Shown piece after piece: positions 1 to 13,365 of a stretch of DNA of 13,365 bases. The notes under the pieces are model-generated. The model worked only from the letters and a program-made list of their open reading frames with translations, was not told the DNA's origin and ran no database searches. Positions within the stretch are counted from its first letter, which is position 1. The number at the start of each line of letters is the position of its first letter. A program made the position numbers and the translations under genes. Source of the stretch: a virus (Duplodnaviria; Heunggongvirae; Uroviricota; Caudoviricetes). The stretch lies in the IMG/VR virus record IMGVR_UViG_2606217105_000011; one strand, 5' to 3'.

Positions 1-21
1 TCTCAGTCAGAGGTGACTCAC

Positions 22-321
22 ATGACAAAAACAGTATCAACCAGTAAAAAACCCCGTAAACAGCATTCGCCTGAATTTCGCAGTGAAGCCCTGAAGCTTG
101 CTGAACGCATCGGTGTTACTGCCGCAGCCCGTGAACTCAGCCTGTATGAATCACAGCTCTACAACTGGCGCAGTAAACAGCAAAATCAGCAGACGTCTTC
201 TGAACGTGAACTGGAGATGTCTACCGAGATTGCACGTCTCAAACGCCAGCTGGCAGAACGGGATGAAGAGCTGGCTATCCTCCAAAAGGCCGCGACATAC
301 TTCGCGAAGCGCCTGAAATGA
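22..321 (+). CDS. insE: IS3 transposase OrfA (HTH/leucine-zipper, InsE-like)
   Basis: ATG at 22 preceded by GAGGTG (10..15); the ORF-track start at 13 is a GTG-initiated extension. Sequence [32 protein letters not shown]... matches IS3 InsE from memory. Candidate -1 slippery site A-AAG inside CCAAAAGG at 282..289 near the 3' end. Confidence 0.92.
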
Positions 322-1184
322 AGTATGTCTTTATTGAAAAACATCAGGCTGAGTTCAGCATCAAAGCAATGTGCCGCGTGCTCCGGGTGGCCCGCAGCGG
401 CTGGTATACGTGGTGTCAGCGGCGGACAAGGATAAGCACGCGTCAGCAGTTCCGCCAACACTGCGACAGCGTTGTCCTCGCGGCTTTTACCCGGTCAAAA
501 CAGCGTTACGGTGCCCCACGCCTGACGGATGAACTGCGTGCTCAGGGTTACCCCTTTAACGTAAAAACCGTGGCGGCAAGCCTGCGCCGTCAGGGACTGA
601 GGGCAAAGGCCTCCCGGAAGTTCAGCCCGGTCAGCTACCGCGCACACGGCCTGCCTGTGTCAGAAAATCTGTTGGAGCAGGATTTTTACGCCAGTGGCCC
701 GAACCAGAAGTGGGCAGGAGACATCACGTACTTACGTACAGATGAAGGCTGGCTGTATCTGGCAGTGGTCATTGACCTGTGGTCACGTGCCGTTATTGGC
801 TGGTCAATGTCGCCACGCATGACGGCGCAACTGGCCTGCGATGCCCTGCAGATGGCGCTGTGGCGGCGTAAGAGGCCCCGGAACGTTATCGTTCACACGG
901 ACCGTGGAGGCCAGTACTGTTCAGCAGATTATCAGGCGCAACTGAAGCGGCATAATCTGCGTGGAAGTATGAGCGCAAAAGGTTGCTGCTACGATAATGC
1001 CTGCGTGGAAAGCTTCTTTCATTCGCTGAAAGTGGAATGTATCCATGGAGAACACTTTATCAGCCGGGAAATAATGCGGGCAACGGTGTTTAATTATATC
1101 GAATGTGATTACAATCGGTGGCGGCGGCACAGTTGGTGTGGCGGCCTCAGTCCGGAACAATTTGAAAACCAGAACCTCGCTTAG
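318..1184 (+). CDS. insF: IS3 transposase OrfB (DDE catalytic domain, InsF-like); expressed naturally as OrfAB fusion by -1 frameshift
   Basis: 288-aa ORF in the -1 frame relative to orfA, overlapping at ATGA (318..321). DDE-type motifs visible: [36 protein letters not shown]. Confidence 0.92.
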
Positions 1185-1197
1185 GCCTGTGTCCATA

Positions 1198-1761
1198 TTA
1201 CGTGGGTAGGATCAGAACTCCATCCAGTCGTTTGGGGTTGCTAATGACGTCCTGCATCCGCTTAATCTGGTCGGGCGTAGACATATAATCCCACAGGGTG
1301 AGCAGAACCTTTTTTGCGGCTACACTATTTCCCTGATCTGATACTAATGCCATATAGCCCCATAAACTATCCCTCAGCCAGACAGCATCATAGTGGGTTT
1401 CTGCCGCTGTTTTGTCATCTTCGAAAGTAGAAGCAAGAATAAATGTTCCCCAGGGTTTCTCCGTCAACGTTAACTTTCGTGTGTTTTCTGTTAATGTTAA
1501 CAACCCTTGAATTTCGTCTTTGGTATAGTGGCTCTTTATTTCATTTTTTAATTTGGCTGAGTGAATCAGAAGACGATAATTAGGGTACTTATCTGGATTT
1601 AACGATAAATAACTTTTATCTGTTGCTGCCCCCGTGGAATTAAGAATGTTAAATACAGATTCACTCGTCACTTCTGCCCCTGTCGCCTGGCATGTGCCGC
1701 ACGAAAATATACCAGCGAGCAGAAGAGTTAATGCAGATTTCCCTTTCATAAAATAATCCAT
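1198..1761 (-). pseudogene. IS3-truncated gene for a secreted glycoside hydrolase family 15-like (glucoamylase-family) protein; last 5 codons and stop come from the IS3 terminus
   Basis: Seen: the minus-strand ORF reads across the IS3 end (1214) and stops at 1198..1200 inside IS3. Probable start at ATG 1761 or 1749, giving a classic signal peptide MKGKSALTLLLAGIFSCGTCQA. The segment WGTFILASTFEDDKTAAETHYDAVWLRDSLWG resembles the conserved N-terminal GH15 motif (G-x-[IV]-[IV]-A-S-P-S ... Y-x-W-T-R-D-S). Only about 180 aa precede the junction, far short of a GH15 catalytic domain. Family call is from motif memory only. Confidence 0.45.
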
Positions 1762-2089
1762 CAATCGTTTGTTAAAAGCGTAGATAACCACTTATTCAAC
1801 AACTTGAAAATAAGGTATTTTACCTGGGTTGTTACAAAAGGATTGCATTGCGTAAACGCTTTTTATTTACAAAAAAATGGGGAAGTGTTACAGCGATTGC
1901 GAAAAGCCTGAAGCGGTTGAATTAAGATAATATAGAAAATCAGATACAGCAAAAATGGCAGATTGATCAGGTGAAGATAAATTGGAGCGGGCGAAGGGAA
2001 TCGAGGAAACCCATAATAACCTGCTGTAAAATAAAGATTTTGTGATCAATCATAGGTAACTGATTACGTGATAATAGAGGATCATTATC

Positions 2090-3310
2090 GTGTCGATCAA
2101 GAGCCAAGCATACTTATTTAAAAGAAAAGATGGGATCTGGATGTTTCAGATTTTTGTTCCTAAATACTTACGTCATCTTTACCCTTATAAGTTGTGGAGA
2201 AAAAGCACATCTACACGAGATCTGAATGAGGCGAGAAGATTCAGAAACCATCTATTATTAGAATGGGAGGAACTAAAGCGAAAACATAATCCTGATAACC
2301 CCGAAAGGAGGTTACAAAAAGCTATTGAATCCTTACATTCAGAGGCAAGGGCCAATAAAAACACGCAAAGAGCCGTAAAACGCGGTTATGCACCGCCTTC
2401 CCTGTGCCTAATACGTGACGAATACGCCGAATGCTACAGAGAGCGTCGTTCATACTCAACACTACAGAAATCAGCAAGGGCCGTTGAGCTATTTTTACAA
2501 AGCATTCAGAAAGATGATATTCATATTGAGAAAATAGGCAGACGGCTTGTAACAGTATTCTTAGATGACCAGAAGCAACGAGGAGCAGCCGATCAATCTC
2601 GTCAAAACTGGCTTACATGCTTAGGATCGCTCTATGAATTTGCTAAACGCCGTTATGACGGAATACCAGACAGTAACCCTTTTCACGGTCATAACCTCGA
2701 AGCACGTCGCACAATCGAGAGTTATCAACCGTTTACACCTGAACAAATGCAAAAGCTACTTGATGCAGCGGAGCCGGAGATCAGAAATATTATTTTAATG
2801 GGCTTGTTTTCAGGATGCAGATTAGACGAACTGGCAAGCCTGAAAAAGTCAGAGGTTGTAACTGTGGAAGGAATACGCTGTTTTTATATCAGCAAGAGTA
2901 AGACTAAAGCAGGGATCAGACACGTTCCGATACATTCGAGACTATCGATTATTGTCGATGAATATTTAAATCATAATTATGGTGAATATTTGTTCCCTCA
3001 CTCGAACAAAGTAAAAAGAATCGACGGCAAGAAAGGCCCGTTCTATTCTCAAGCATTCTCACGTTTACGTCGTAACGTCTTGCCAATCGCTACAGATAGA
3101 CAATGCTTTCACAGCTTGCGCGGGATGTTTATCACTTGTCTTGATCGTGCCGGAGTGCCTGAACAGCGGATCGGAGCCATTACCGGACATACAGAGCAGA
3201 GAGCTAAAACAGAAGCCTTTCGCACCTACTCACAAGGGGCAAGCATTCCAGAATTAGCTGAATATGTAGAATTAGTAAAATATGAATTAAATATTGATTT
3301 TAAGGCGTAA
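2090..3310 (+). CDS. int: Tyrosine-type site-specific recombinase (phage/island integrase), 406 aa, GTG start
   Basis: C-terminal catalytic signature readable in the translation: R in GCRLDELASL, K in the SKSKTKAG hairpin region, H-x-x-R in CFHSLRGMF, H in ITGHTEQ, and the nucleophile Y in FRTYSQG about 36 residues after HxxR. The N-terminal region looks like an arm-type DNA-binding domain. Upstream GAGGAT serves as an SD-like sequence. Confidence 0.85.
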   Translation: MSIKSQAYLFKRKDGIWMFQIFVPKYLRHLYPYKLWRKSTSTRDLNEARRFRNHLLLEWEELKRKHNPDNPERRLQKAIESLHSEARANKNTQRAVKRGYAPPSLCLIRDEYAECYRERRSYSTLQKSARAVELFLQSIQKDDIHIEKIGRRLVTVFLDDQKQRGAADQSRQNWLTCLGSLYEFAKRRYDGIPDSNPFHGHNLEARRTIESYQPFTPEQMQKLLDAAEPEIRNIILMGLFSGCRLDELASLKKSEVVTVEGIRCFYISKSKTKAGIRHVPIHSRLSIIVDEYLNHNYGEYLFPHSNKVKRIDGKKGPFYSQAFSRLRRNVLPIATDRQCFHSLRGMFITCLDRAGVPEQRIGAITGHTEQRAKTEAFRTYSQGASIPELAEYVELVKYELNIDFKA

Positions 3311-3335
3311 AACAACGCCATAAACGTAATAAAAA

Positions 3336-3368
3336 GGCTTCCTTGTAATGGGAGCCTCTTATATGCTT
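3336..3368. terminator. Putative bidirectional intrinsic terminator between convergent int and structural operon
   Basis: Hairpin GGCTTCC(3336..3342)-ttgtaat-GGGAGCC(3350..3356): 7 bp with one G-U wobble on the plus-strand RNA, followed by TCTTATATGCTT. On the minus-strand RNA the stem has one A-C mismatch but is followed by a UUUUUAUUAC tract. Sits in the 108-bp gap between convergent genes. Confidence 0.4.
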
Positions 3369-3417
3369 AATTCCTTACAAGAGTGTTTTAGATTGTGATT
3401 AAACATTCTCTTTATCA

Positions 3418-5259
3418 TTAACTTGGTGCTTGCCCAGACAGAGCCGCCAACGTGAAACTACGTTCAAAATCTTGTTGGATACTTCCCACTTTGTAATCGA
3501 GGTATGATCCAAGCTGACTACCATCAGGGGCGATATTCACATCCACCTTGCTTTCCGGCACGTTTACGACGATGTTCGGTGCATACGTCATAGATGGGGT
3601 AGTGTTCAGATCACGGCTAACGTTCTGTTTCAGGGATTGCACGTTATCAGATGGGCTTGCATAGTTCTGAATTGCAGTTCCGCCAGTCGTTGGCTTGTCT
3701 TCCGTGCCAGGAATAGGATCTAAGCCTAAAGCACTACGACCCCAATCAACCATACCACCTACAAACGAGTCCTTATAATACATACCGGACGAATCAAGGT
3801 TTTCATGCTTGTTCTCTGGGTTGATATTTTGGTATGCAGCAGTAAGCCACGATACAGCACCAGCAAAGGCGCTCATCATTTCAGCCGTTGAGCTTCCAAG
3901 TTCTTTAAACAGAGGATTCAAATCTTTCAACATTTGCGCCCACTCTTCACCAGCTTGAGCATCGAACTCTTCACCAAATCCAGTCATGATAGCTTTCTTA
4001 CTACCTTCCCATGCCATATTCATATTTGCCTGTACCGCTTGCAGACGTTCGGCAGCGTCCAGATCCGCTTGTGTATAGGTGGCATTGGCCTTTTGCATCT
4101 TAACGATGGTCTTGTTTAGCTCTTCACCATTACGACTAAAGGCACCACGGAAATATTGCAAATCATTGCCCAGGTCTTCAAGGATGTGCCCGATTTCTTG
4201 ATCTGATAATCCACGGCGTTCACCTTCTTTCACTACAGCGCCCAGGAAACCTAAAGGATCAGTCTGGAAACCTTTAACCTGTTCAGGTGACCAGCCATAT
4301 TTATTAAGGATGTTATCGACGGCACCATTACCGCCAGCCCAGCGACCTTTCTTAGCGTCCCATTTGGTATTCCCTACGGATTCACCTAAACGTTCCTGAA
4401 CGTCTTTAAGGTTGTCTTGACGTTGGTCTACGGAACTATCAACACCGTGTTCTAAGCCGTACTGGTTGAGAGCTAACAGGGCGTTAGTGTTTACGTTGAC
4501 AGCCTTTGCCTTGCGGTTAGTGTCTGTGATCTTGCTTGCCTGATCGGTTACGGTATTGAATATCGCAGCACCGCCGAAAGTAGCAGCAGTGAGAGCGGCA
4601 CCGCCTACCATTGCACCGACACCAGCGCCCATATGACCACCTTTAAGCTGTTTAGCCATATGTGGGTATTTACCGCCATCAGCCGCCACCTGGCGAGCTT
4701 TTACAGCAGCCGCACGGCGTTCTAACGTGATACGATCACGGATCAGGTGATTCATCTTAGCCTGGCTTATAGCGCCTTTCTCATACGCTGCCGTTTGTGC
4801 TTTGATGTATTGCAATGTTTTGTAGTACTGGGCGCTATCCATACCGTCGCCCATACGCCCTTTTTTGATGCCTTCAAGCTGTCTAAAAGCTTGCTGGCGT
4901 TTAATCTCTGCCTTCTCTGCTATTGTCGCTTTAGCGCGGATCTGTTTATCGGCAGCTATAGCGGCTTTAGCTTTCGCTTTAGCTTCTGCCTTTGCCACCT
5001 TATCAGCGTTCTTCTTGTCCGTTTGAGCTTGCTTGTCTGACGCTTTAGCATCAGCTTTAGCCTGTGTAGCTTTACGAGCCTTTACCAGATCATGAGCATC
5101 GTCTATAGCTTTTTTAGCCTTCTTCCCTTTCATCGTTGGATTGGTTAGGTTTTCCATTTCTTTTTGAAATTTCTTCCCTGCATCGCGTGCTTTCTGCAAT
5201 GATGCAAAATCAACTTTAAATACAACCTTGTTTGTTAAGGTTGAGATGTTTAAATCCAT
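3418..5259 (-). CDS. Phage structural protein, 613 aa: N-terminal Lys/Ala-rich coiled coil, central Gly-rich hydrophobic segment, large C-terminal domain (tape-measure-like, scaffold-like or internal/ejection protein; identity unresolved)
   Basis: ATG at 5259 with AAGGAAAA SD; stop 20 nt after the preceding gene. Composition features: KAKAKAAIAADKQIRAKATIAEKAEIKRQQ repeats, then GGHMGAGVGAMVGGAALTAATFGGAAIF. No motif I can assign to a named family by eye. Confidence 0.5.
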   Translation of the reverse strand: MDLNISTLTNKVVFKVDFASLQKARDAGKKFQKEMENLTNPTMKGKKAKKAIDDAHDLVKARKATQAKADAKASDKQAQTDKKNADKVAKAEAKAKAKAAIAADKQIRAKATIAEKAEIKRQQAFRQLEGIKKGRMGDGMDSAQYYKTLQYIKAQTAAYEKGAISQAKMNHLIRDRITLERRAAAVKARQVAADGGKYPHMAKQLKGGHMGAGVGAMVGGAALTAATFGGAAIFNTVTDQASKITDTNRKAKAVNVNTNALLALNQYGLEHGVDSSVDQRQDNLKDVQERLGESVGNTKWDAKKGRWAGGNGAVDNILNKYGWSPEQVKGFQTDPLGFLGAVVKEGERRGLSDQEIGHILEDLGNDLQYFRGAFSRNGEELNKTIVKMQKANATYTQADLDAAERLQAVQANMNMAWEGSKKAIMTGFGEEFDAQAGEEWAQMLKDLNPLFKELGSSTAEMMSAFAGAVSWLTAAYQNINPENKHENLDSSGMYYKDSFVGGMVDWGRSALGLDPIPGTEDKPTTGGTAIQNYASPSDNVQSLKQNVSRDLNTTPSMTYAPNIVVNVPESKVDVNIAPDGSQLGSYLDYKVGSIQQDFERSFTLAALSGQAPS

Positions 5260-5277
5260 AATATTTTCCTTTACCTT

Positions 5278-5493
5278 TTATTTATTCTGTTTTGATACGT
5301 AATATTGCACTGCTTCCATAGCGGAACAGCCTGTAGCAAAAATTCTTTGACGTACAGCGGTATTAGAGATCCCTAAAAACTTACATACTTGTGAGATATT
5401 TAGAATATCTTCCGGTAAGGTGGAAACAGCTTTCAGGATTTCAACGGGATTGTTATTTTGTGTGTTCATGGTTTTCTCACTTTTATTCGACAT
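5278..5493 (-). CDS. Small HTH DNA-binding protein (excisionase/AlpA-like or regulatory); probable true start at the internal ATG 5469 (MNTQ..., 63 aa)
   Basis: Helix-turn-helix-like segment DILNISQVCKFLGISNTAVRQRI. The internal ATG has a weak GAGAAA SD while the first ATG has none. Located between the capsid gene and the 613-aa gene in the same operon. Confidence 0.45.
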   Translation of the reverse strand: MSNKSEKTMNTQNNNPVEILKAVSTLPEDILNISQVCKFLGISNTAVRQRIFATGCSAMEAVQYYVSKQNK

Positions 5494-5613
5494 TAGAAAA
5501 CAAAAAGGGCAAAGAGATCCGTTACTGTATTTGTTTTACAGGTTAGTTAATCCCTTTTGCCCTTATTGCCTGTTTTATTTCCAGTCGCACAGGAAACGAC
5601 TATTAACGCTTTA

Positions 5614-6642
5614 TTACGCTACTGTGATCTGTACAGTGAAGCCTACGCCGTGGTTTACAACCATCTGGCTATTCTCGGTAACTACGTTTACAGCGTCGTT
5701 ACGTGCTGGGCTAAATGCATAGCTGTAATATTCAGCCGATCCAGAGTTCAGAAGGTCGAACGTTGAAGAAGGAGCGCCGAAAATGTTCTGATAGACGTTA
5801 GAGCCTTTAGCGAACTTCGGAACAGCCACCGCATCAGAAGTCATATGAGCCAGCAGCAGCGGATCGGTAACTTTGATCAGATCAATGTTAGTGCCTGGAA
5901 TAGTGAAGGTAGTCACACCTGGCAGCAGGGAGCGCACACTATAAACGATGTTTGCGTCATCGGTAGGGCTTGCATACTGGAACGCGTTAACCATGCCAGC
6001 ACTGTAACGGATAGCGTTAAATGCAGCAGGTTTACAGAATACAACGATACGCTCTACAGCAGCCGCCTGGCTTTGTGCTTTAGTAATAACGTCTGTATGC
6101 ATCTGATCGAATTGCTGGAACACCATAGAAGGCGTGGTGCTTGATGCGTCGATGGTTGCAGTCAGCGGAACAGCACTAAACAGATCGCCCCACTGAATCA
6201 GCACATCGTCAGTTTTAGGGGTGTAGGTGCGACCACTAAACAGGGAAGCAGCCAGTACGCTTTCTTTAGTACGCTGGAAAGCAATGTGGTGCTTAGCAAC
6301 ATATTCCGCGTAGATATCTGTCAGAGTCTCTTCAACGGTAGCGCCTGGTTTACGTTTGCCTTGAACGTCTTGCGGCTTAATCATATCTTCACGCAGGAAG
6401 TAGGGGATCTCTACTAAAAATTCTTTACCCTGTTCACGTTTAGTCACGTTATGTTCAGAAGAGAAACGAGAGGTTTCTTTGTTGAACAGAGATTCGTTAG
6501 TTTCCACCAGTTGGCTAACAGCCACTTTATGAGAACTCACACCTACCGGATCAGTGAAGTCCAGAGTAGTTAACAGGAAGTTGCGAGAGTCGTGCAGACT
6601 AAACAGCGGAGCCAGATCGACGGATTCATTACCAATAATCAT
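5614..6642 (-). CDS. Major capsid protein, lambda gpE-like family (342 aa)
   Basis: ATG at 6642 with AAAGGAATAAACATA upstream. Length matches lambda gpE (341 aa). By-eye colinear motif resemblance to lambda gpE: DLAPLFSL vs FDPLFLRLF near the N-terminus, IVVFCKPAAFNAI vs NIIVFDPKGWALF, DANIVYSVRS vs DVAIVVYSGQ, and C-terminal GFTVQITVA vs EFVSVQLA. Not search-verified. Confidence 0.6.
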   Translation of the reverse strand: MIIGNESVDLAPLFSLHDSRNFLLTTLDFTDPVGVSSHKVAVSQLVETNESLFNKETSRFSSEHNVTKREQGKEFLVEIPYFLREDMIKPQDVQGKRKPGATVEETLTDIYAEYVAKHHIAFQRTKESVLAASLFSGRTYTPKTDDVLIQWGDLFSAVPLTATIDASSTTPSMVFQQFDQMHTDVITKAQSQAAAVERIVVFCKPAAFNAIRYSAGMVNAFQYASPTDDANIVYSVRSLLPGVTTFTIPGTNIDLIKVTDPLLLAHMTSDAVAVPKFAKGSNVYQNIFGAPSSTFDLLNSGSAEYYSYAFSPARNDAVNVVTENSQMVVNHGVGFTVQITVA

Positions 6643-6660
6643 TATGTTTATTCCTTTATA

Positions 6661-7032
6661 TTAAGATGTGAATACAGTGTTAAAACCAGCCATCTGGAAG
6701 CCTTTAGCAGCCAGAGCAGCAATAGCGGCTTCTTTAATAGCGCCTTCAACATTCAGAGCATCAGACTTGATGCAAACCAGTCCGGCATTGCTACGCAGCA
6801 CGTTAACGGTTTTAGCGTCGCCAGCGGATACCGCATCAGACACAACCACAAGAACATCGCCGCCGCTTACATATTCAGCGCCGTTACTGGTAATCAGATC
6901 GCCGCATTCCACATCAACCGCCAGATCAACGGTAAAAGATTGCACACAACCGAACTCATCAGTTGCATAGCTCACGATATCGGTAAATGATTTGCGAACT
7001 GGAAACAGATCGCTCATATTAATAATAGCCAT
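6661..7032 (-). CDS. Small capsid-associated protein, candidate head decoration/cementing protein (123 aa)
   Basis: Positional only: encoded immediately upstream of the gpE-like capsid gene (as gpD is in lambda), has a decoration-protein size, is Gly/Ala/Val-rich, and has a strong SD (AAGGAAA). I could not see convincing sequence similarity to lambda gpD. Confidence 0.3.
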   Translation of the reverse strand: MAIINMSDLFPVRKSFTDIVSYATDEFGCVQSFTVDLAVDVECGDLITSNGAEYVSGGDVLVVVSDAVSAGDAKTVNVLRSNAGLVCIKSDALNVEGAIKEAAIAALAAKGFQMAGFNTVFTS

Positions 7033-7034
7033 AA

Positions 7035-7250
7035 TTAATAGTTTCCTTTTTTGGATTGTTTGATTTGTTCTGCTTTTGCTTTAATCAGATCCTGCATAGT
7101 AGGCTTCTGTTCATCAGCAGACTTAAAAAGCTTATCACAATGTTTTTTCAATTCTGTTGGAGTGATCCCCAACATATAAGCCGTAGCATTGAATGTTTCA
7201 TCAGTGATAATCAATTCTTCGTTACCATTCTTTAGAATGAGATTTTGCAT
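7035..7250 (-). CDS. Hypothetical small protein (71 aa), first gene of the capsid operon
   Basis: ATG at 7250 with AAAGGTAAAG upstream; its stop abuts the next gene's SD/start (7032). No recognisable motif. Confidence 0.4.
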   Translation of the reverse strand: MQNLILKNGNEELIITDETFNATAYMLGITPTELKKHCDKLFKSADEQKPTMQDLIKAKAEQIKQSKKGNY

Positions 7251-7290
7251 TGTTGCTTTACCTTTTTTCTAACGTTCTTGTTTAGTCCTG

Positions 7291-7322
7291 ATAAAATAAA
7301 ACCGGAAGGGGAAAGCTTCCGG
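7291..7322 (-). terminator. Intrinsic terminator (minus-strand orientation)
   Basis: Perfect 7-bp stem CCGGAAG(7302..7308)/CTTCCGG(7316..7322) with a 7-nt loop. On the minus-strand RNA it is followed directly by UUUUAUUUUAU (reverse complement of 7291..7301). On the plus strand the U-tract is poor. Confidence 0.6.
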
Positions 7323-7444
7323 CTTTATGGATACAAAACATATGAAGGATGCGATAGAAGTGTTACTAAATCGTATTTATATGCACTTAAAGAGGGTAGG
7401 ACATATAAGAATAAGATTGCTTATTGTTATATACCCTTGAGGGG

Positions 7445-7520
7445 TGAATAACAGGCTTACAGGGAGTAGGCGCTTAGGAGGTCGCCCCCTTTGGAGAGGA
7501 ATCTATAAACCTGTTATTCG
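7445..7520. repeat. 10-bp perfect inverted repeat (GAATAACAGG ... CCTGTTATTC) flanking a 54-bp GC-rich core; candidate RNA stem-loop or protein-binding/recombination site
   Basis: Seen: 7446..7455 is the exact reverse complement of 7510..7519. The enclosed sequence contains a GGCG...CGCC sub-hairpin and an AGGAGG motif. A 10-bp perfect inverted repeat this close together is unlikely by chance. Confidence 0.45.
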
Positions 7521-7786
7521 TGCGATGGCTAATCGCTGTCTTTCTCAATGTGGATGCATCGATCAGACTTTCAGGAATCACCTATTAACTTTCAAACCTT
7601 TTGGATTCTCATTTTAATAGGAGGCGGTGCCGAGATGATTTCGGGGATCATCCACGCATTTCGCGTTCTAAGATTGGCACCTTAATAAACACCAACAAAC
7701 AAAAAACTTATTTAGCTTTGGGCTTAATAGAAACTGTTGTCAAGAAACAGATATACACCGTTATTTGTTTATACGGGGTTTATAGA

Positions 7787-7807
7787 CACTGTAAACAGTG
7801 TTTTTAG
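7787..7807 (+). terminator. Putative intrinsic terminator (plus-strand orientation)
   Basis: ACACTG(7787..7792)-TAAA-CAGTGT(7797..7802) hairpin followed by TTTTT on the plus strand. Implies a plus-strand transcript ending here inside the ORF-poor region. Confidence 0.4.
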
Positions 7808-7825
7808 AAAGTGTTTCATGCTTCA

Positions 7826-7865
7826 CAGTTGGTTAAAAAGATGAGGGGCCAAGTCCTTAGCCCCT
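7826..7865 (-). terminator. Putative intrinsic terminator (minus-strand orientation) downstream of the small-gene operon
   Basis: Stem AGGGGC(7844..7849)/GCCCCT(7860..7865) with a 10-nt loop. On the minus-strand RNA it is followed by CUCAUCUUUUUAAC. About 265 nt downstream of the last gene of the operon (ends 8130). Confidence 0.35.
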
Positions 7866-8129
7866 GCATTCTTAAGACACAATATGATAAAGCAATAAGG
7901 AAAATAAAATGAAACTATTAACGAGGGAAACAATTTCTAAAAATCACTGTAAAGGGAAAGCGAGGCAGGTTAGATAGGGCGCGACCCCTTGAGGTCTACC
8001 CCGCTTTCGTGTAGGATTAGAATCGGTAGAAGGTTTAACGCCAGCTAACACCTGTTTTCTATTCTGCCCCCTATATTTCTTATTATATAACATTTCTGTT
8101 AGAAAGTCAATAGGTAAATCAAAGTTTTT

Positions 8130-8342
8130 TCAGTTCTTTTCGTTCGTTAACTGCCAATCACCAAATACACAATTACCATCTAAAACAATTGTTTGTTCGT
8201 TACCGTTATCATCGGTTACGTGCATCAGGCGGGTGTAATTGTCGAGATTGCCAGTGTAGATCTTGCCTACTGTGAAGCAATTACCCGCTTTGCCTTCTTC
8301 TGTGAGTGCCAGGAGGCGCACACGTTTAGTTTTTACTGTCAT
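8130..8342 (-). CDS. Hypothetical small protein (70 aa)
   Basis: Start at 8342 overlaps the stop of the upstream gene (translational coupling). Last gene of a minus-strand operon. Confidence 0.45.
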   Translation of the reverse strand: MTVKTKRVRLLALTEEGKAGNCFTVGKIYTGNLDNYTRLMHVTDDNGNEQTIVLDGNCVFGDWQLTNEKN

Positions 8343-8650
8343 TAGTTGTTAGCCTTATCGATTAGTTGTGCTATGAGTGGTTGCAAGTCTGCTACCGCTT
8401 GTTGCATGATTTCAGTGGTGTCATTGATCACGGTAATCAGGTTATTCAGATCATCAGCTTCAATCTGTGCACCTTCGGATTGTTTGCACGCTTCAATAAG
8501 CAATTGCAGTGCTTCCCGCGTCGATTCCAGATTAATAACCGCCTGTGTGATGGTCAGTTCGCTTGGAAAGGTCAGAGCCGCATTAACTGCTTTCTGTAAA
8601 GAAATAATAAGATCGTACATCTGAAGCGTTACGTTGTGTGTAGTGCTCAT
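8342..8650 (-). CDS. Hypothetical small acidic, predicted all-helical protein (102 aa)
   Basis: Start at 8650 overlaps the stop of the upstream gene. Strong excess of D/E over K/R in the translation. Confidence 0.5.
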   Translation of the reverse strand: MSTTHNVTLQMYDLIISLQKAVNAALTFPSELTITQAVINLESTREALQLLIEACKQSEGAQIEADDLNNLITVINDTTEIMQQAVADLQPLIAQLIDKANN

Positions 8651-8871
8651 TATGCCACTTCCTCTAATTGTTCTAATTGTTGTTGTGCTTCGCGTGCTTT
8701 CTTCATAGCGATAGTGAGCGGAATTTTATAAGTTGCAATGCTGTCTATAACGTCATCCAGAATTGCCAGATCGTTCTCTTCCTTTGCTCGTTCGATAATA
8801 TCTATGAAGCATTCTGAAAGAAGCTTGAGATCGTGAAAAGTGGTTGTCTCTAAAATTGCTTTGTTAATCAT
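8650..8871 (-). CDS. Hypothetical small acidic helical protein (73 aa)
   Basis: ATG at 8871 with AAAAGGAAAA SD; stop overlaps the next gene's start at 8650. Confidence 0.5.
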   Translation of the reverse strand: MINKAILETTTFHDLKLLSECFIDIIERAKEENDLAILDDVIDSIATYKIPLTIAMKKAREAQQQLEQLEEVA

Positions 8872-8912
8872 TTTATTTTCCTTTTGTTAAGGGTTATATT
8901 CATCTAATGCTG

Positions 8913-9293
8913 TTAATCGTCAATGTTTACTTTATCAAGTAGAAGTAAGTCTGTTTCTCGAACTCCTGCATATTGCAGGCTATTAAGCGCCATATACCCC
9001 CTAAAATGGGCCATGTCTGAAAATCCCAAACATTGCCATCTTTTAAGAAGACTACTATCAATGATTGTTGTTTTGCGTGGGCGTGGATTGAAGTAAACGC
9101 CAGGCATACTTTGAATGATTGATAATTCTGTGTCTGTTAATTCTGGGCTTGGTTCTTCAAGTATGAAGATCAATTCTTCGCCTGGTTCCGCATCATGCTC
9201 ATAGTTATATTTACGAGGATTGTTTAACGCATACTGATCACATGCTTCGCCAATAGTTGTTATTACGTTTTTCTTACCTTTTTTCTTGCTCAT
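8913..9293 (-). CDS. Hypothetical protein (126 aa), Lys-rich N-terminus
   Basis: ATG at 9293 with GAAGGGGAAG SD. No recognisable motif. Confidence 0.5.
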   Translation of the reverse strand: MSKKKGKKNVITTIGEACDQYALNNPRKYNYEHDAEPGEELIFILEEPSPELTDTELSIIQSMPGVYFNPRPRKTTIIDSSLLKRWQCLGFSDMAHFRGYMALNSLQYAGVRETDLLLLDKVNIDD

Positions 9294-9414
9294 TGCTTCC
9301 CCTTCGTTTTGTTTTTCTTGTTGCAGTGTTAAAAAAGGAAGCGATCATAAATACTAAGAAAAATATTAAGCTTTCCATTGTTTCACCCTTCAAGATGTTT
9401 GATAGTTGTTTGTT

Positions 9415-9633
9415 TTAAGCTACAGAGTCGATTCTGAATGCTTTCATATGAGTTTTGGTATACTGCAATAATCCTTGTTTACTTAGGCTATCGAGAAGAG
9501 CATATAAAAATTGCTCACCTACCACACCGGAAAACTCAGAATCAAACAGAATCATTCCCGTTCTTTCCCGTAAATATTGCAGAAAGGTTTCTTGTGAAAA
9601 TTCGCTATCGAATATGGTCACAGCGCCACCCAC
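9415..9633 (-). CDS. Hypothetical ORF (72 aa from a GTG start, no SD); may be the C-terminal part of a split or frameshifted gene
   Basis: Frame is open from 9651 with a GTG at 9633 and no convincing SD. It overlaps the end of the upstream ORF by 16 nt with a 34-nt two-frame-open window (9618..9651). Confidence 0.25.
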   Translation of the reverse strand: MGGAVTIFDSEFSQETFLQYLRERTGMILFDSEFSGVVGEQFLYALLDSLSKQGLLQYTKTHMKAFRIDSVA

Positions 9634-9875
9634 AATTCGAAAGGGCTTATCTCAAGCAAACGGAACGTCTGACTATTCACAGCCTCATACTTAATTACCC
9701 CAAAATGGCTCAGGTGATTTAACCAGTGCTGTGTGTGTTCTTTACTATGAGGTAACTCCTGCCAGCTGATAATCGCGGGTAGCTCATAATTGCTATCAGC
9801 AAGCTGTTTTGCCAGTGTGTAGCCGCTTTCTGTAATTTCGAATGTTCGTTTGTTTAATGTCAGGTTGTATTTCAT
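9618..9875 (-). CDS. Hypothetical protein (85 aa); possibly the N-terminal part of a frameshifted gene continued by 9415..9633
   Basis: ATG at 9875 with AAGGAGAA SD. Its frame ends at 9618 while the downstream ORF frame is already open from 9651. Confidence 0.45.
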   Translation of the reverse strand: MKYNLTLNKRTFEITESGYTLAKQLADSNYELPAIISWQELPHSKEHTQHWLNHLSHFGVIKYEAVNSQTFRLLEISPFELWVAL

Positions 9876-9887
9876 TTTTTATTCTCC

Positions 9888-10553
9888 TTAAAATGGTATT
9901 GAGTCATAGATTTCACTTTCTTTTCTCAGGGCTATCATCAGTGCATTAAAAGCATCATCTTCAAGAATTATCCTCTTCGAGGTCAGTGCACGTTTTATAA
10001 AATTTTCTGTTTCTTCTTGCATAGGCTTTTGGCTGTCTATGGAAATAAGCCATGTAAAAAGATCAGATTGTTCCGTGATTTCTGCCTGTGTTTCCTGCTC
10101 AATAGAGTGTGTCGCTTCTAACGGTTCCTGTGTTTCAGGTGCAGGCTGTTCTACGTTTACAGAGGTTTTTACGTCTTCCGGTGGTGTGATGTGTGCATCT
10201 GTAAAGGGTAATGCTTTATAGAGTGATGTTTGCCCGTCCCGTGCCTCTACAGAAAGAACACCCATATCAATAAACATATTTATAATATTACGCACCTGAC
10301 GATCACTAACCATTCCAATATTAGCTAATGTTTTTTGATTGGCGTAACATTCTTGCCCTTGTTCATTGAACCCAGCTACGTAACTGTAGATTTCAACGGC
10401 TGGAAGTGTCGCGGTGTATTCCTTACCTGACGGTGAGAACCACTTTTTAAACATCTTCAGCCATTGTTCAACTACTACATATGTTTGTTTACTATCTTTC
10501 TTATTGAGGCATTGCGCTTTTGCTTCGGCAATTGTTTTGGTGTTTTGGTTCAT
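9888..10553 (-). CDS. Winged-helix/HTH DNA-binding protein with acidic linker and C-terminal helical domain (221 aa); candidate replication initiator/replisome organiser or regulator
   Basis: ATG at 10553 with a perfect AAGGAGG SD 6 nt upstream. HTH-like segment NIGMVSDRQVRNIINMFIDMGVL; acidic E/Q/T-rich linker; C-terminal helical region. Functional call is an inference from architecture. Confidence 0.5.
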   Translation of the reverse strand: MNQNTKTIAEAKAQCLNKKDSKQTYVVVEQWLKMFKKWFSPSGKEYTATLPAVEIYSYVAGFNEQGQECYANQKTLANIGMVSDRQVRNIINMFIDMGVLSVEARDGQTSLYKALPFTDAHITPPEDVKTSVNVEQPAPETQEPLEATHSIEQETQAEITEQSDLFTWLISIDSQKPMQEETENFIKRALTSKRIILEDDAFNALMIALRKESEIYDSIPF

Positions 10554-10677
10554 TTAGTTCCTCCTTTGTAAGGACTGTAATTAGTAATTCATTAACAAGT
10601 TTTGGAATTGATTTCCCTTCTGCCTTTGCACGATTTAACAACGCGTTATAAGTTGCAGAATCAAAATTAATATTCAT
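10501..10677 (-). CDS. Ribbon-helix-helix (CopG/Arc/MetJ-like) small DNA-binding protein, 58 aa; not in the supplied ORF track
   Basis: Hand-translated from the minus strand: MNINFDSATYNALLNRAKAEGKSIPKLVNELLITVLTKEELNEPKHQNNCRSKSAMPQ. ATG at 10677 with AGGAGAAGGAG upstream. Beta-strand/helix/G-K-S turn/helix pattern typical of RHH proteins (compare CopG ...MAREMGLSKSAMISVAL...). Its 3' end overlaps the start of the 221-aa gene by 53 nt in another frame. Confidence 0.55.
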   Translation of the reverse strand: MNINFDSATYNALLNRAKAEGKSIPKLVNELLITVLTKEELNEPKHQNNCRSKSAMPQ

Positions 10678-10700
10678 TTGGTTTTCTCCTTCTCCTGTTA

Positions 10701-10883
10701 TTATTCTTTCTCTGCTTCTGCCTTACGCAGTTCATCAATAATTTTTAGTGCATCGTCAAAGCATTTTTCACGCTCTGGATAACCACAGCGCCGCGCTGTG
10801 TTCCTGTTCATCCTTACTTGATGTCGTGTTAGCTCACCTTTTTTAAATGCCTCTACGACGTGTTCCGGTGTATACCATTTCAT
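10701..10883 (-). CDS. Hypothetical small basic protein (60 aa, MKWYTPEHVV...), first gene of the small-gene operon
   Basis: ATG at 10883 with AAGGAG 7 nt upstream. The longer track ORF (to 10916) starts at a GTG with no SD. Confidence 0.45.
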   Translation of the reverse strand: MKWYTPEHVVEAFKKGELTRHQVRMNRNTARRCGYPEREKCFDDALKIIDELRKAEAEKE

Positions 10884-11867
10884 AAAAAACTCCTTATTTA
10901 GATAAAAGAAAAACACACCTTGCAGCCTGACGGCTCAAAGTGCAGTGTTCTGTGATTTGATTATTTAGATGGAGAGAGATGTTTCTCCCCTCCCTACTTA
11001 CAATACTACATAACGGCGGCTTTGTCAACCCTCTTTTATAAAAAATCTGATCATTTTCAATTTCTTATAATTTTTCTTAGCTTTTTGTGCTGCATACTCT
11101 GGTACAATTCTTCCCTGTTGTCTAAAACGCTCTCAATCGCACTCTGACGGGGTTTTGATAAAAACAATACATTCCCTTATGTAGAGGTTGTTTATCTCGT
11201 CGGAGGCTTATTTAAGGGGCTTATTTTTGATTTATCAGATGATGGAAAGATGGTGGATAGATAAACTCTGATTTCAGACATCTTATAAAATACCTGCAAA
11301 GTTCTCAGAAGCTCTGTAACGAGCTAATCTATTACCGCTAAGGTGTTTCCCTTACATTACCCTGTTTAGCTCGCCTACGGCTTGATTTAAGCGGTAGAAT
11401 CTTATTTAACCTTCAACTACAAAAACCATTCTTTCTTTTTTGTTGTTGGTTGTTTTGTCATGTTATGCGTTAGCATCCCCAAAGGGTAACGCGACACTAA
11501 CAACCATTCGCTTACGCTCAGGTTATTGCACAAGTAAATTTCAATCGTTAGATGGTAGTTAGTTAATTATCGTTCTGCGCACAGCGCAAGACTATTAGCC
11601 ATACGCAAGCCGTAGGCTATTTGCACATAGTAGATTACATATTCGTTGTGAGCGGAAAGCGAACATAGATCAGCTAACTACTAACAAAAAACAAAAAACA
11701 AAAACTATCTGTTATGACAAGCATCAGTCTAACTTGTGCAAGGTTCTGGCGAATGCCAATAGATTAAGGGATAGTCGAAGACTCCCTAACGGGTATCCCT
11801 ATAATTATTCTTTAAAAGATAAAAGAATTTATAAAAGATAGTTTAATTGTAGTTTAATTATAGTATT

Positions 11868-11919
11868 GTAGGAACTCATTTCCTGGGTAGGTAGGAACTC
11901 ATTTCCTGGGTAGGTAGGG
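11868..11919. repeat. Tandem direct repeat, 2 copies of a 23-bp unit GTAGGAACTCATTTCCTGGGTAG plus a partial third copy; each unit contains the palindrome AGGAA-N5-TTCCT
   Basis: Seen: 11868..11890 and 11891..11913 are identical, followed by GTAGGG. Internal inverted repeat AGGAA(11870..11874)/TTCCT(11880..11884). Lies in a 1.2-kb ORF-free region. Iteron/operator-like. Confidence 0.7.
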
Positions 11920-12181
11920 AAACCGCACTATACACTGGTAAGTGTCTTGCACAGAAAAAGGTATCAAAAATGTCTAAAGCCCCTTTAGATAAAAATGATA
12001 CCTTTATACATGCGCTAATAGCGCGCATAACAATAACCTACTAACAACTAACTAACTAAAAAGTAAGAAGATGTTGTTATGATTAGTGTATCGCTCAACG
12101 CTCACATCTATCTCTGATCTATAAATTGGTAACTGTCTAACAACAACAAACTGATCCTACCCACGTAATATGGACACAGGC

Positions 12182-13048
12182 CTAAGCGAGGTTCTGGTTT
12201 TCAAATTGTTCCGGACTGAGGCCGCCACACCAACTGTGCCGCCGCCACCGATTGTAATCACATTCGATATAATTAAACACCGTTGCCCGCATTATTTCCC
12301 GGCTGATAAAGTGTTCTCCATGGATACATTCCACTTTCAGCGAATGAAAGAAGCTTTCCACGCAGGCATTATCGTAGCAGCAACCTTTTGCGCTCATACT
12401 TCCACGCAGATTATGCCGCTTCAGTTGCGCCTGATAATCTGCTGAACAGTACTGGCCTCCACGGTCCGTGTGAACGATAACGTTCCGGGGCCTCTTACGC
12501 CGCCACAGCGCCATCTGCAGGGCATCGCAGGCCAGTTGCGCCGTCATGCGTGGCGACATTGACCAGCCAATAACGGCACGTGACCACAGGTCAATGACCA
12601 CTGCCAGATACAGCCAGCCTTCATCTGTACGTAAGTACGTGATGTCTCCTGCCCACTTCTGGTTCGGGCCACTGGCGTAAAAATCCTGCTCCAACAGATT
12701 TTCTGACACAGGCAGGCCGTGTGCGCGGTAGCTGACCGGGCTGAACTTCCGGGAGGCCTTTGCCCTCAGTCCCTGACGGCGCAGGCTTGCCGCCACGGTT
12801 TTTACGTTAAAGGGGTAACCCTGAGCACGCAGTTCATCCGTCAGGCGTGGGGCACCGTAACGCTGTTTTGACCGGGTAAAAGCCGCGAGGACAACGCTGT
12901 CGCAGTGTTGGCGGAACTGCTGACGCGTGCTTATCCTTGTCCGCCGCTGACACCACGTATACCAGCCGCTGCGGGCCACCCGGAGCACGCGGCACATTGC
13001 TTTGATGCTGAACTCAGCCTGATGTTTTTCAATAAAGACATACTTCAT
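12182..13048 (-). CDS. insF: IS3 transposase OrfB (InsF-like, DDE)
   Basis: Translation identical to the 318..1184 ORF. Confidence 0.92.
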
Positions 13049-13344
13049 TTCAGGCGCTTCGCGAAGTATGTCGCGGCCTTTTGGAGGATAGCCAGCTCTT
13101 CATCCCGTTCTGCCAGCTGGCGTTTGAGACGTGCAATCTCGGTAGACATCTCCAGTTCACGTTCAGAAGACGTCTGCTGATTTTGCTGTTTACTGCGCCA
13201 GTTGTAGAGCTGTGATTCATACAGGCTGAGTTCACGGGCTGCGGCAGTAACACCGATGCGTTCAGCAAGCTTCAGGGCTTCACTGCGAAATTCAGGCGAA
13301 TGCTGTTTACGGGGTTTTTTACTGGTTGATACTGTTTTTGTCAT
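13045..13344 (-). CDS. insE: IS3 transposase OrfA (InsE-like)
   Basis: Translation identical to copy A orfA; ATG start placed at the mirrored position of 22. Confidence 0.92.
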
Positions 13345-13365
13345 GTGAGTCACCTCTGACTGAGA

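Follow-up and report, generated by a model that had tools for sequence, protein, structure and literature searches.

The stretch analysed here, IMG/VR record IMGVR_UViG_2606217105_000011 (13,365 nt; Caudoviricetes; referred to as the window), carries at its two ends inverted, identical copies of the insertion sequence (IS) IS3 of Escherichia coli, which enclose a short piece of chromosome and most of a phage-like island integrated at the tRNA-Gly gene glyU. The pair is probably the product of two independent and ordinary IS3 events, 10.9 kb apart and in opposite orientation. The left copy goes back to an old insertion that a large E. coli lineage has passed down vertically. To judge from the loci compared, it forms part of the chromosomal backbone, and the island appears to have been acquired separately and to have been recently mobile. 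The right copy appears to be a clean insertion into the island that is strain-specific and hence recent. The arrangement fits known IS behaviour throughout. The element is none other than IS3, E. coli B and C already carry the left insertion, and the right insertion site alone is new.

A repeat search of the window identifies positions 1–1215 and 12151–13365 as an inverted repeat of 1215 nt with 100% complementarity, a length that cannot have a chance origin, and exact string matching confirms 1–1214 as the reverse complement of 12152–13365. The IS3 share of each arm is 1214 nt. The remaining base pair, G at 1215 with C at 12151, belongs to the flanks and matches fortuitously, because the right inverted repeat (IRR) terminus ...GGGTAGGATCA ends at 1214 and 12152. 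The left copy (1..1214, plus strand) comprises nt 45–1258 of the 1258-bp element, with the IRR terminus ...GGATCA at 1214, and is identical to RefSeq-annotated IS3. It encodes orfA (22–321, plus strand; 99 aa; Pfam HTH_Tnp_1) and orfB (318–1184, plus strand; 288 aa; Pfam rve, rve_2 and HTH_21), with a −1 slip site, A-AAG, read from the sequence at 285–288 (plus strand) in the orfA/orfB overlap. The right copy (12152..13365, minus strand) comprises the same nt 45–1258, inverted with its IRR terminus at 12152, and encodes orfB (12182–13048, minus strand; rve, rve_2 and HTH_21) and orfA (13045–13344, minus strand; HTH_Tnp_1). Both arms have the two open reading frames (ORFs) expected of IS3, an orfA with a helix-turn-helix domain and an orfB with the rve core in the −1 frame relative to orfA, and their 1214 nt match the copies in REL606, AMSCJX02 and five other loci without a single difference. 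RefSeq labels the identical sequence, for example in REL606, 'IS3-like element IS3 family transposase, programmed frameshift', as a single coding sequence of 1163 nt. Compared with IS3 of Escherichia coli (IS3 group, 1258 bp, −1 frameshift, 3-bp target duplication) the arms share the ORFs, Pfam domains, slip site and IRR terminus and show no difference in the element; their left inverted repeat (IRL) tips and target duplications fall outside the window. Of the 5'-TG...CA-3' terminal inverted repeats, the IRR is present at 1214 and 12152 and the IRL termini lie beyond the window, as both arms start at IS3 nt 45 and lack, relative to full copies elsewhere, 44 nt of the IRL end on each side. The initial annotation, which described an identical inverted IS3 pair with orfB-proximal ends facing inward, cut symmetrically inside both copies so that the outer flanks are invisible, is borne out on each of these points by the complementarity and string match, the inward-pointing IRR termini and the shared stop of both window ends within IS3.

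The left copy truncates the glycoside-hydrolase-15-like gene ygeQ, with which the ETT2 type III secretion region ends; the remaining 5' part of ygeQ (1215..1749, minus strand) has a frame that enters IS3 and stops at 1198. A 100-nt probe across this IS3/ygeQ junction is matched at 100% in 191 of 5426 complete E. coli genomes, REL606, BL21(DE3), C41, C43 and E. coli C among them, and the 183-aa ygeQ'-IS3 fusion product is indexed as an exact match in 1835 blocks of public assemblies. The IS3 at yqeH'/'ygeQ in E. coli B (REL606, BL21) and C has the same junction and the same IS3 sequence as the left copy. REL606 differs from the window in having glyU without an island, where the window holds a phage-like one, and in 16 of 790 sites of the flank between ygeQ and the attachment (att) site; the IS3 junction at the ETT2 deletion is accordingly found in genomes without this island. 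Window positions 1–2004 are 100% identical to four further loci (L008, L009, L012 and L013; L numbers denote comparison loci) that hold another island at glyU, and identity to these backbones with a different occupant ends exactly at 2004, the end of the att core. The left IS3 belongs to the backbone, because 1–2004 matches these loci perfectly, whereas the island itself closely matches islands that sit in other backbones.

L005, in which the 536-aa ygeQ gene is intact, shows the empty site, cccgg/GAActcc. In the six loci where both ends of the ygeQ-linked IS3 are readable, the element is bordered on the outer side by a yqeH remnant with CTA as its last bases and on the inner side by DNA that begins with GAA, and none of the six has a target duplication (CTA versus GAA). 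In a seventh locus, L008, the outer flank of the ygeQ-linked copy differs from yqeH'. The junction yqeH'-IS3-'ygeQ likely arose when the ETT2 cluster that separates yqeH from ygeQ was deleted, and this older deletion is the likely reason why the left copy has no duplication. ETT2 adjoins glyU, and its widespread attrition and IS insertions are known (PMC11068852). A further state of this region is seen in L006 (GCA_903980225.1, 11950–14823), in which yqeG follows ~420 bp after the island integrase, with ygeQ and ETT2 wholly missing and no IS; beside the same island, the ETT2/glyU junction exists here in a third form that is independent of the other two.

The right copy presents a different picture. 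Its inner junction reads ...CAACAACAAAC/TGATCCTACCC, with the IS3 terminus directly abutting island DNA. BLAST with a 100-nt probe finds this junction in none of the 5426 complete E. coli genomes, no record covering at least 80% of the probe, and an exact search of viral, species-representative and metagenome contig collections returns no match. The site is uninterrupted in L005 (...caacaacaaac/aactattac), L001, L006, L007 and every island-bearing complete genome. Given that the junction is absent from these collections and that the site is empty in islands differing from that of the window at only 6–8 sites in 10.1 kb, the right copy is a recent arrival. The insertion point lies ~3.5 kb short of glyU, in an ORF-free stretch that is unannotated in RefSeq relatives, and no ORF crosses the junction. 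AAC, the 3 bp abutting the right IS3 (12149..12151, plus strand), is the predicted target-site duplication, based on the empty site in L005 and on analogous insertions in strain PSJ-16. For a simple insertion, the outer side of the right copy is predicted to read from the IRL end of IS3, ...CTGGGTAAGATCA, through AAC into AACTATTACATGC. The predicted parental outer flanks are yqeH', with CTA next to IS3 as in relatives, on the left (...CCGTAGCATCTA followed by TGATCTTACCC) and AAC followed by AACTATTAC on the right. The predicted outer junction, with 0–6 nt allowed between IS end and flank, has no match in the viral, species-representative or metagenome collections.

The enclosed DNA was described in the initial annotation as a whole phage-like cassette bracketed by the IS3 pair. 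This does not agree with the limits of the island, as the left copy lies 790 bp outside att and the right copy inside the island. The att core, a 22-nt copy of the 3' end of glyU (TCGATTCCCTTCGCCCGCTCCA; 1983..2004, minus strand), marks the boundary between chromosome and island; a tRNA scan finds no tRNA gene in the window, only this 22-nt half-site. Alignment to IS-free relatives assigns 2005..12151 to the integrase-proximal ~10.1 kb of an island of ~13.7 kb, which is bounded by glyU and the 22-nt half-site. In the complete genome of PM4-5 the island runs ~3.5 kb past the position of the right IS3 to a full glyU beside actS, this additional DNA consisting of ~1.1 kb of non-coding sequence followed by a 192-aa tyrosine recombinase and three small genes. 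Between the IS3 copies thus lie ~790 bp of chromosome (ygeQ'/att) and ~74% of the island, counted from the int side; attL/glyU and the other ~3.5 kb (26%) of the island are not enclosed.

The interior (1215–12151) aligns as one collinear piece with IS-free E. coli chromosomes. It is covered to at least 80% in 52 complete genomes, the best of which is 98.3% identical, and the draft and metagenome contigs L005 and L007 are 99.8% identical over its length. The 6–8 differences between the island at 2005–12151 and the islands of L005–L007, which sit in different backbones, are all non-coding, synonymous or shared with one of these, and no island protein is unique to the window. The chromosomal ygeQ-att flank of L005 and L007, whose backbones have ETT2 intact, differs from the window at 14–17 of 790 sites (1.8–2.2%). 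So few differences between islands across backbones suggests recent transfer.

The E. coli strain PSJ-16 (L002; NZ_AP027632.1) provides a direct comparator. An island of the same family carries two further IS3 copies, at 5400–6657 and 11634–12891, each with its own 3-bp duplication (AAC and GTT), and the segment between them, ~5 kb, is not inverted. As in the window, two identical IS3 copies lie inverted a few kb apart in a glyU island. In PSJ-16, unlike in the window, both copies lie within the island, their IRL ends point inward (IRR ends in the window pair), and one copy truncates the 613-aa gene. IS3 insertion in this island family is recurrent, and an inverted pair needs no special cause, since the PSJ-16 island holds its own inverted and independently duplicated pair. 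Islands adjacent to tRNA genes are known to accumulate IS elements. As a separate observation, all three IS3 targets in this island family read AAC/GTT and lie in runs rich in A/C or G/T, possibly a sign of target preference.

Our results support a history in three steps. An old IS3 would first have come to lie at yqeH'-IS3-'ygeQ, where most of the ETT2 cluster was lost; the junction itself is shared among genomes and the deletion is the presumed cause. The ~13.7-kb phage-like island would then have integrated via its tyrosine integrase at the 3' end of glyU, as the att core and the break in identity at 2004/2005 suggest, the order of these two events being the probable one. Finally, in the source strain, a further IS3 would have entered the non-coding stretch of the island at AAC, in opposite orientation, by copy-out/paste-in. 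The IS3 family transposes in this manner through a circular intermediate.

An inverted pair of IS copies also has the geometry of a compound transposon, in which two IS copies flank a segment. A unit running from IS3 through ygeQ'/att/int and the capsid gene to IS3 could then move via its two outer IRL ends. The initial annotation had raised such composite mobilisation, independent of the integrase, as a possibility. We consider this exceedingly improbable. The interior is in its native arrangement, collinear with IS-free genomes and including 790 bp of backbone that is 100% identical to the lineage; the DNA enclosed is in the native ygeQ-att-island order, where a compound transposon would enclose DNA foreign to its location. 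The left junction is old and occurs also in genomes without an island or with a different island at glyU, and no second location is found in any collection searched, either by the right junction or by the predicted outer junction. The pair also leaves out attL and 26% of the island. Moreover, the IS3 family pairs IRL with IRR in its circle junction, and two IRL ends would be atypical. Tn10/IS10 and Tn5/IS50 likewise consist of two inverted copies of one IS around a segment. These transposons occupy many sites with a shared outer duplication and foreign cargo, in contrast to the window, which represents a native locus with no second location and an IS family that uses an IRL-IRR circle junction. 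Comparison of target duplications at the two copies, as a test of composite mobilisation, would mislead here because the absence of a matching repeat at the left copy has an older and unrelated cause. Its missing duplication is not evidence of composite mobilisation. More generally, an absent duplication at one IS may stem from an older deletion, which in this case would produce a false positive.

The geometry of the pair would also allow inversion. Repeats of 1.26 kb that are inverted, 10.9 kb apart and identical over the 1214 nt seen are a good RecA substrate, so that the two IS3 copies could recombine and the 10.9 kb be flipped in the source genome or in part of its population. We regard this as unlikely: there is no positive evidence for it, and PSJ-16, the one comparable case available, has an inverted IS3 pair without inversion of the segment between. 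In the flipped state, yqeH' would be joined via IS3 to island position 12151, and ygeQ'/att/int would face glyU. If flipped, attR and int would be turned relative to attL, such that the integrase would invert DNA between the att sites and excision would be blocked. It is highly improbable that the inverted IS3 pair is itself functional, whether by flipping int/attR as a switch that locks and unlocks excision or as an IRL-IRL compound transposon. If it were, a capsid-encoding island, maybe a satellite, would gain a second, integrase-independent route of mobility.

The identity of the two arms had also been taken to imply a recent event. A recent origin holds for the right copy, on the evidence of its junction and the empty sites, and fails for the left copy, which is old. 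The ygeQ IS3 copy is base-for-base the same in seven loci of other genomes (REL606, AMSCJX02, L008–L010, L012 and L013), and other IS3 copies differ from this ygeQ-type sequence at 2–4 positions. Two copies within one genome, that of AMSCJX02, differ at nt 29, 114 and 946. A typical E. coli genome has about four IS3 copies, judging from complete genomes. Identity is no sign of recency because the old ygeQ copy is unchanged across the seven other loci. The identity of the arms is compatible with descent of the new copy from a ygeQ-type sequence and dates nothing. In general, the identity of IS copies is an unreliable clock, and an assembler can create it in short-read contigs.

This last consideration applies directly to the window. 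The chances appear evenly balanced that the record is a whole short-read contig with both ends in one collapsed IS3, so that the two inner junctions would be real but 'two complete, identical copies' a product of the assembler and, in the extreme case, the right junction a mis-join. The boundaries of the window appear to be set by the repeat itself because both ends stop at the same IS3 nucleotide, and a shared stop at nt 45 would be expected about once in 1200 for a cut independent of the repeat. Draft contigs of relatives also break within IS3: L015 breaks off 169 nt and L016 60 nt in from the IRR end, and L014 ends at IS3 nt 30, right after the polymorphic nt 29. Assemblers can in addition pass through IS3 and link the wrong flanks, as seen in L008. 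A mis-join at the right junction is nevertheless made unlikely by its position exactly at the IS3 terminus and by a plausible AAC target like that of PSJ-16. An assembly origin for the identity is otherwise compatible with two independent insertions and takes weight only from the word 'identical'. Most likely, then, the window is a complete short-read contig running into a collapsed IS3 at each end, and the arms would then be identical by construction.

In the metagenome contig L008 (ENA ERZ27232876, k141_175343), a single IS3 at 10536–11793 joins ygeQ' to yfgG/pdeF/ppx/ppk; in the complete genome AMSCJX02 the IS3 copies on the ygeQ side and yfgG side are 351 kb apart in direct orientation. 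The IS3 of L008 has mixed alleles, that of the yfgG copy at nt 29 and those of the ygeQ copy at nt 114 and 946. A natural IS3-mediated rearrangement was considered and rejected, as it would need a 351-kb deletion that is probably lethal; a metagenome mis-join is more likely, with a recombinant as the alternative. Nucleotide 29 of IS3 (G/A, in the IRL region and outside the window) is also seen to vary between copies in one genome (L020 position 2896, L008), micro-heterogeneity that sets contig ends.

Several points weigh against a history of two ordinary insertions as reconstructed here. Because the outer flanks lie outside the window, three features are predictions: the duplication of AAC, yqeH' as outer flank and a segment that is not inverted. 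The inner junctions are the same in both isomers, so that the window is compatible with either orientation of the enclosed DNA. The order of IS3 first and island second could be reversed if the allele combining IS3 and the ETT2 deletion was imported by homologous recombination. Finally, a polymorphism at IS3 nt 44, which might account for the contig ends, is found in none of eleven full copies inspected, and the stop at nt 45 has no matching polymorphism among the copies seen.

The arrangement has a consequence for how such records are interpreted. Completeness calls of the CheckV type, for example, take inverted terminal repeats to mark a viral genome as complete. Like a viral genome with inverted terminal repeats, the window is a phage-like contig with a long, perfect terminal inverted repeat. 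Its arms are instead IS3 cut at nt 45, and the contig also contains chromosomal ygeQ' and an att half-site. A long, perfect terminal inverted repeat on a phage-like contig can therefore be an IS rather than a viral terminus, as it is here, and should not be taken to mark the viral genome as complete.

Within the part of the island in the window, a tyrosine integrase (2090–3310, plus strand) is followed by genes that are all on the minus strand. These encode a 613-aa tape-measure-like protein (3418–5259), a major capsid protein of the Phage_cap_E type (5614–6642), a 123-aa ORF upstream of the capsid gene (6661–7032) and a 221-aa replication-initiator-like protein (9888–10553), along with many small ORFs. 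The ORF-free 1.2 kb at 10917–12151 is non-coding and repeat-bearing. Continued in L005 at 2035–4375, it forms part of ~2.3 kb of island DNA without ORFs or annotated genes, in the middle of which the new IS3 is positioned. The stretch contains tandem repeats (a 23-mer repeated twice at window 11868–11913 and a 21-mer repeated 3.2 times at L005 2140–2205) and A/C-rich runs (AACAACAACAAAC and CTAACTAACTAA). Rfam returns nothing credible in the window or in the full non-coding stretch of L005. This region could be an origin, a packaging region or an uncharacterised RNA.

Sequence similarities link the island to the Stephanstirmvirinae, and it may represent a satellite, so far undescribed, of virulent phi92/phAPEC8-like myoviruses in this group. 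The phage relatives are ~150-kb virulent myoviruses of the genera Justusliebigvirus and Phapecoctavirus. At the nucleotide level, window 10198–10458 has 91% identity to phages muut, inny and Mt1B1_P17, and 10525–10691 has 95–96% identity to PaulScherrer and VEcB. Part of muut gp094, in an early-gene region, shares 75% identity with the 221-aa protein. The island capsid protein is 23–25% identical to the major head protein of the group, and residues 233–611 of the 613-aa protein have 29–31% identity to its tape measure protein. In muut, the place that corresponds to the 123-aa ORF, upstream of the capsid gene, is taken by the head-decoration gene. Assignment as a phage-inducible chromosomal island (PICI) or capsid-forming PICI was dropped, there being no matches to terminase, portal, protease or primase among the island ORFs tested, and the island does not match any described E. 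coli satellite type. Among the papers searched, none connects a satellite with phages of the Stephanstirmvirinae or describes a capsid island at glyU. Relatives of the capsid protein with 75–79% amino acid identity are present in 12 IMG/VR proviral contigs (L021–L032; uncultivated viral genomes, UViGs, from isolate genomes). Such islands form a wider family, which may extend beyond E. coli.

For the island of the source strain, the new IS3 adds 1.26 kb and splits the non-coding, repeat-bearing region, which may impair replication or packaging. For E. coli and its glyU islands more broadly, the biological weight of the inverted pair is small, and it represents ordinary IS traffic rather than a new mobile unit.

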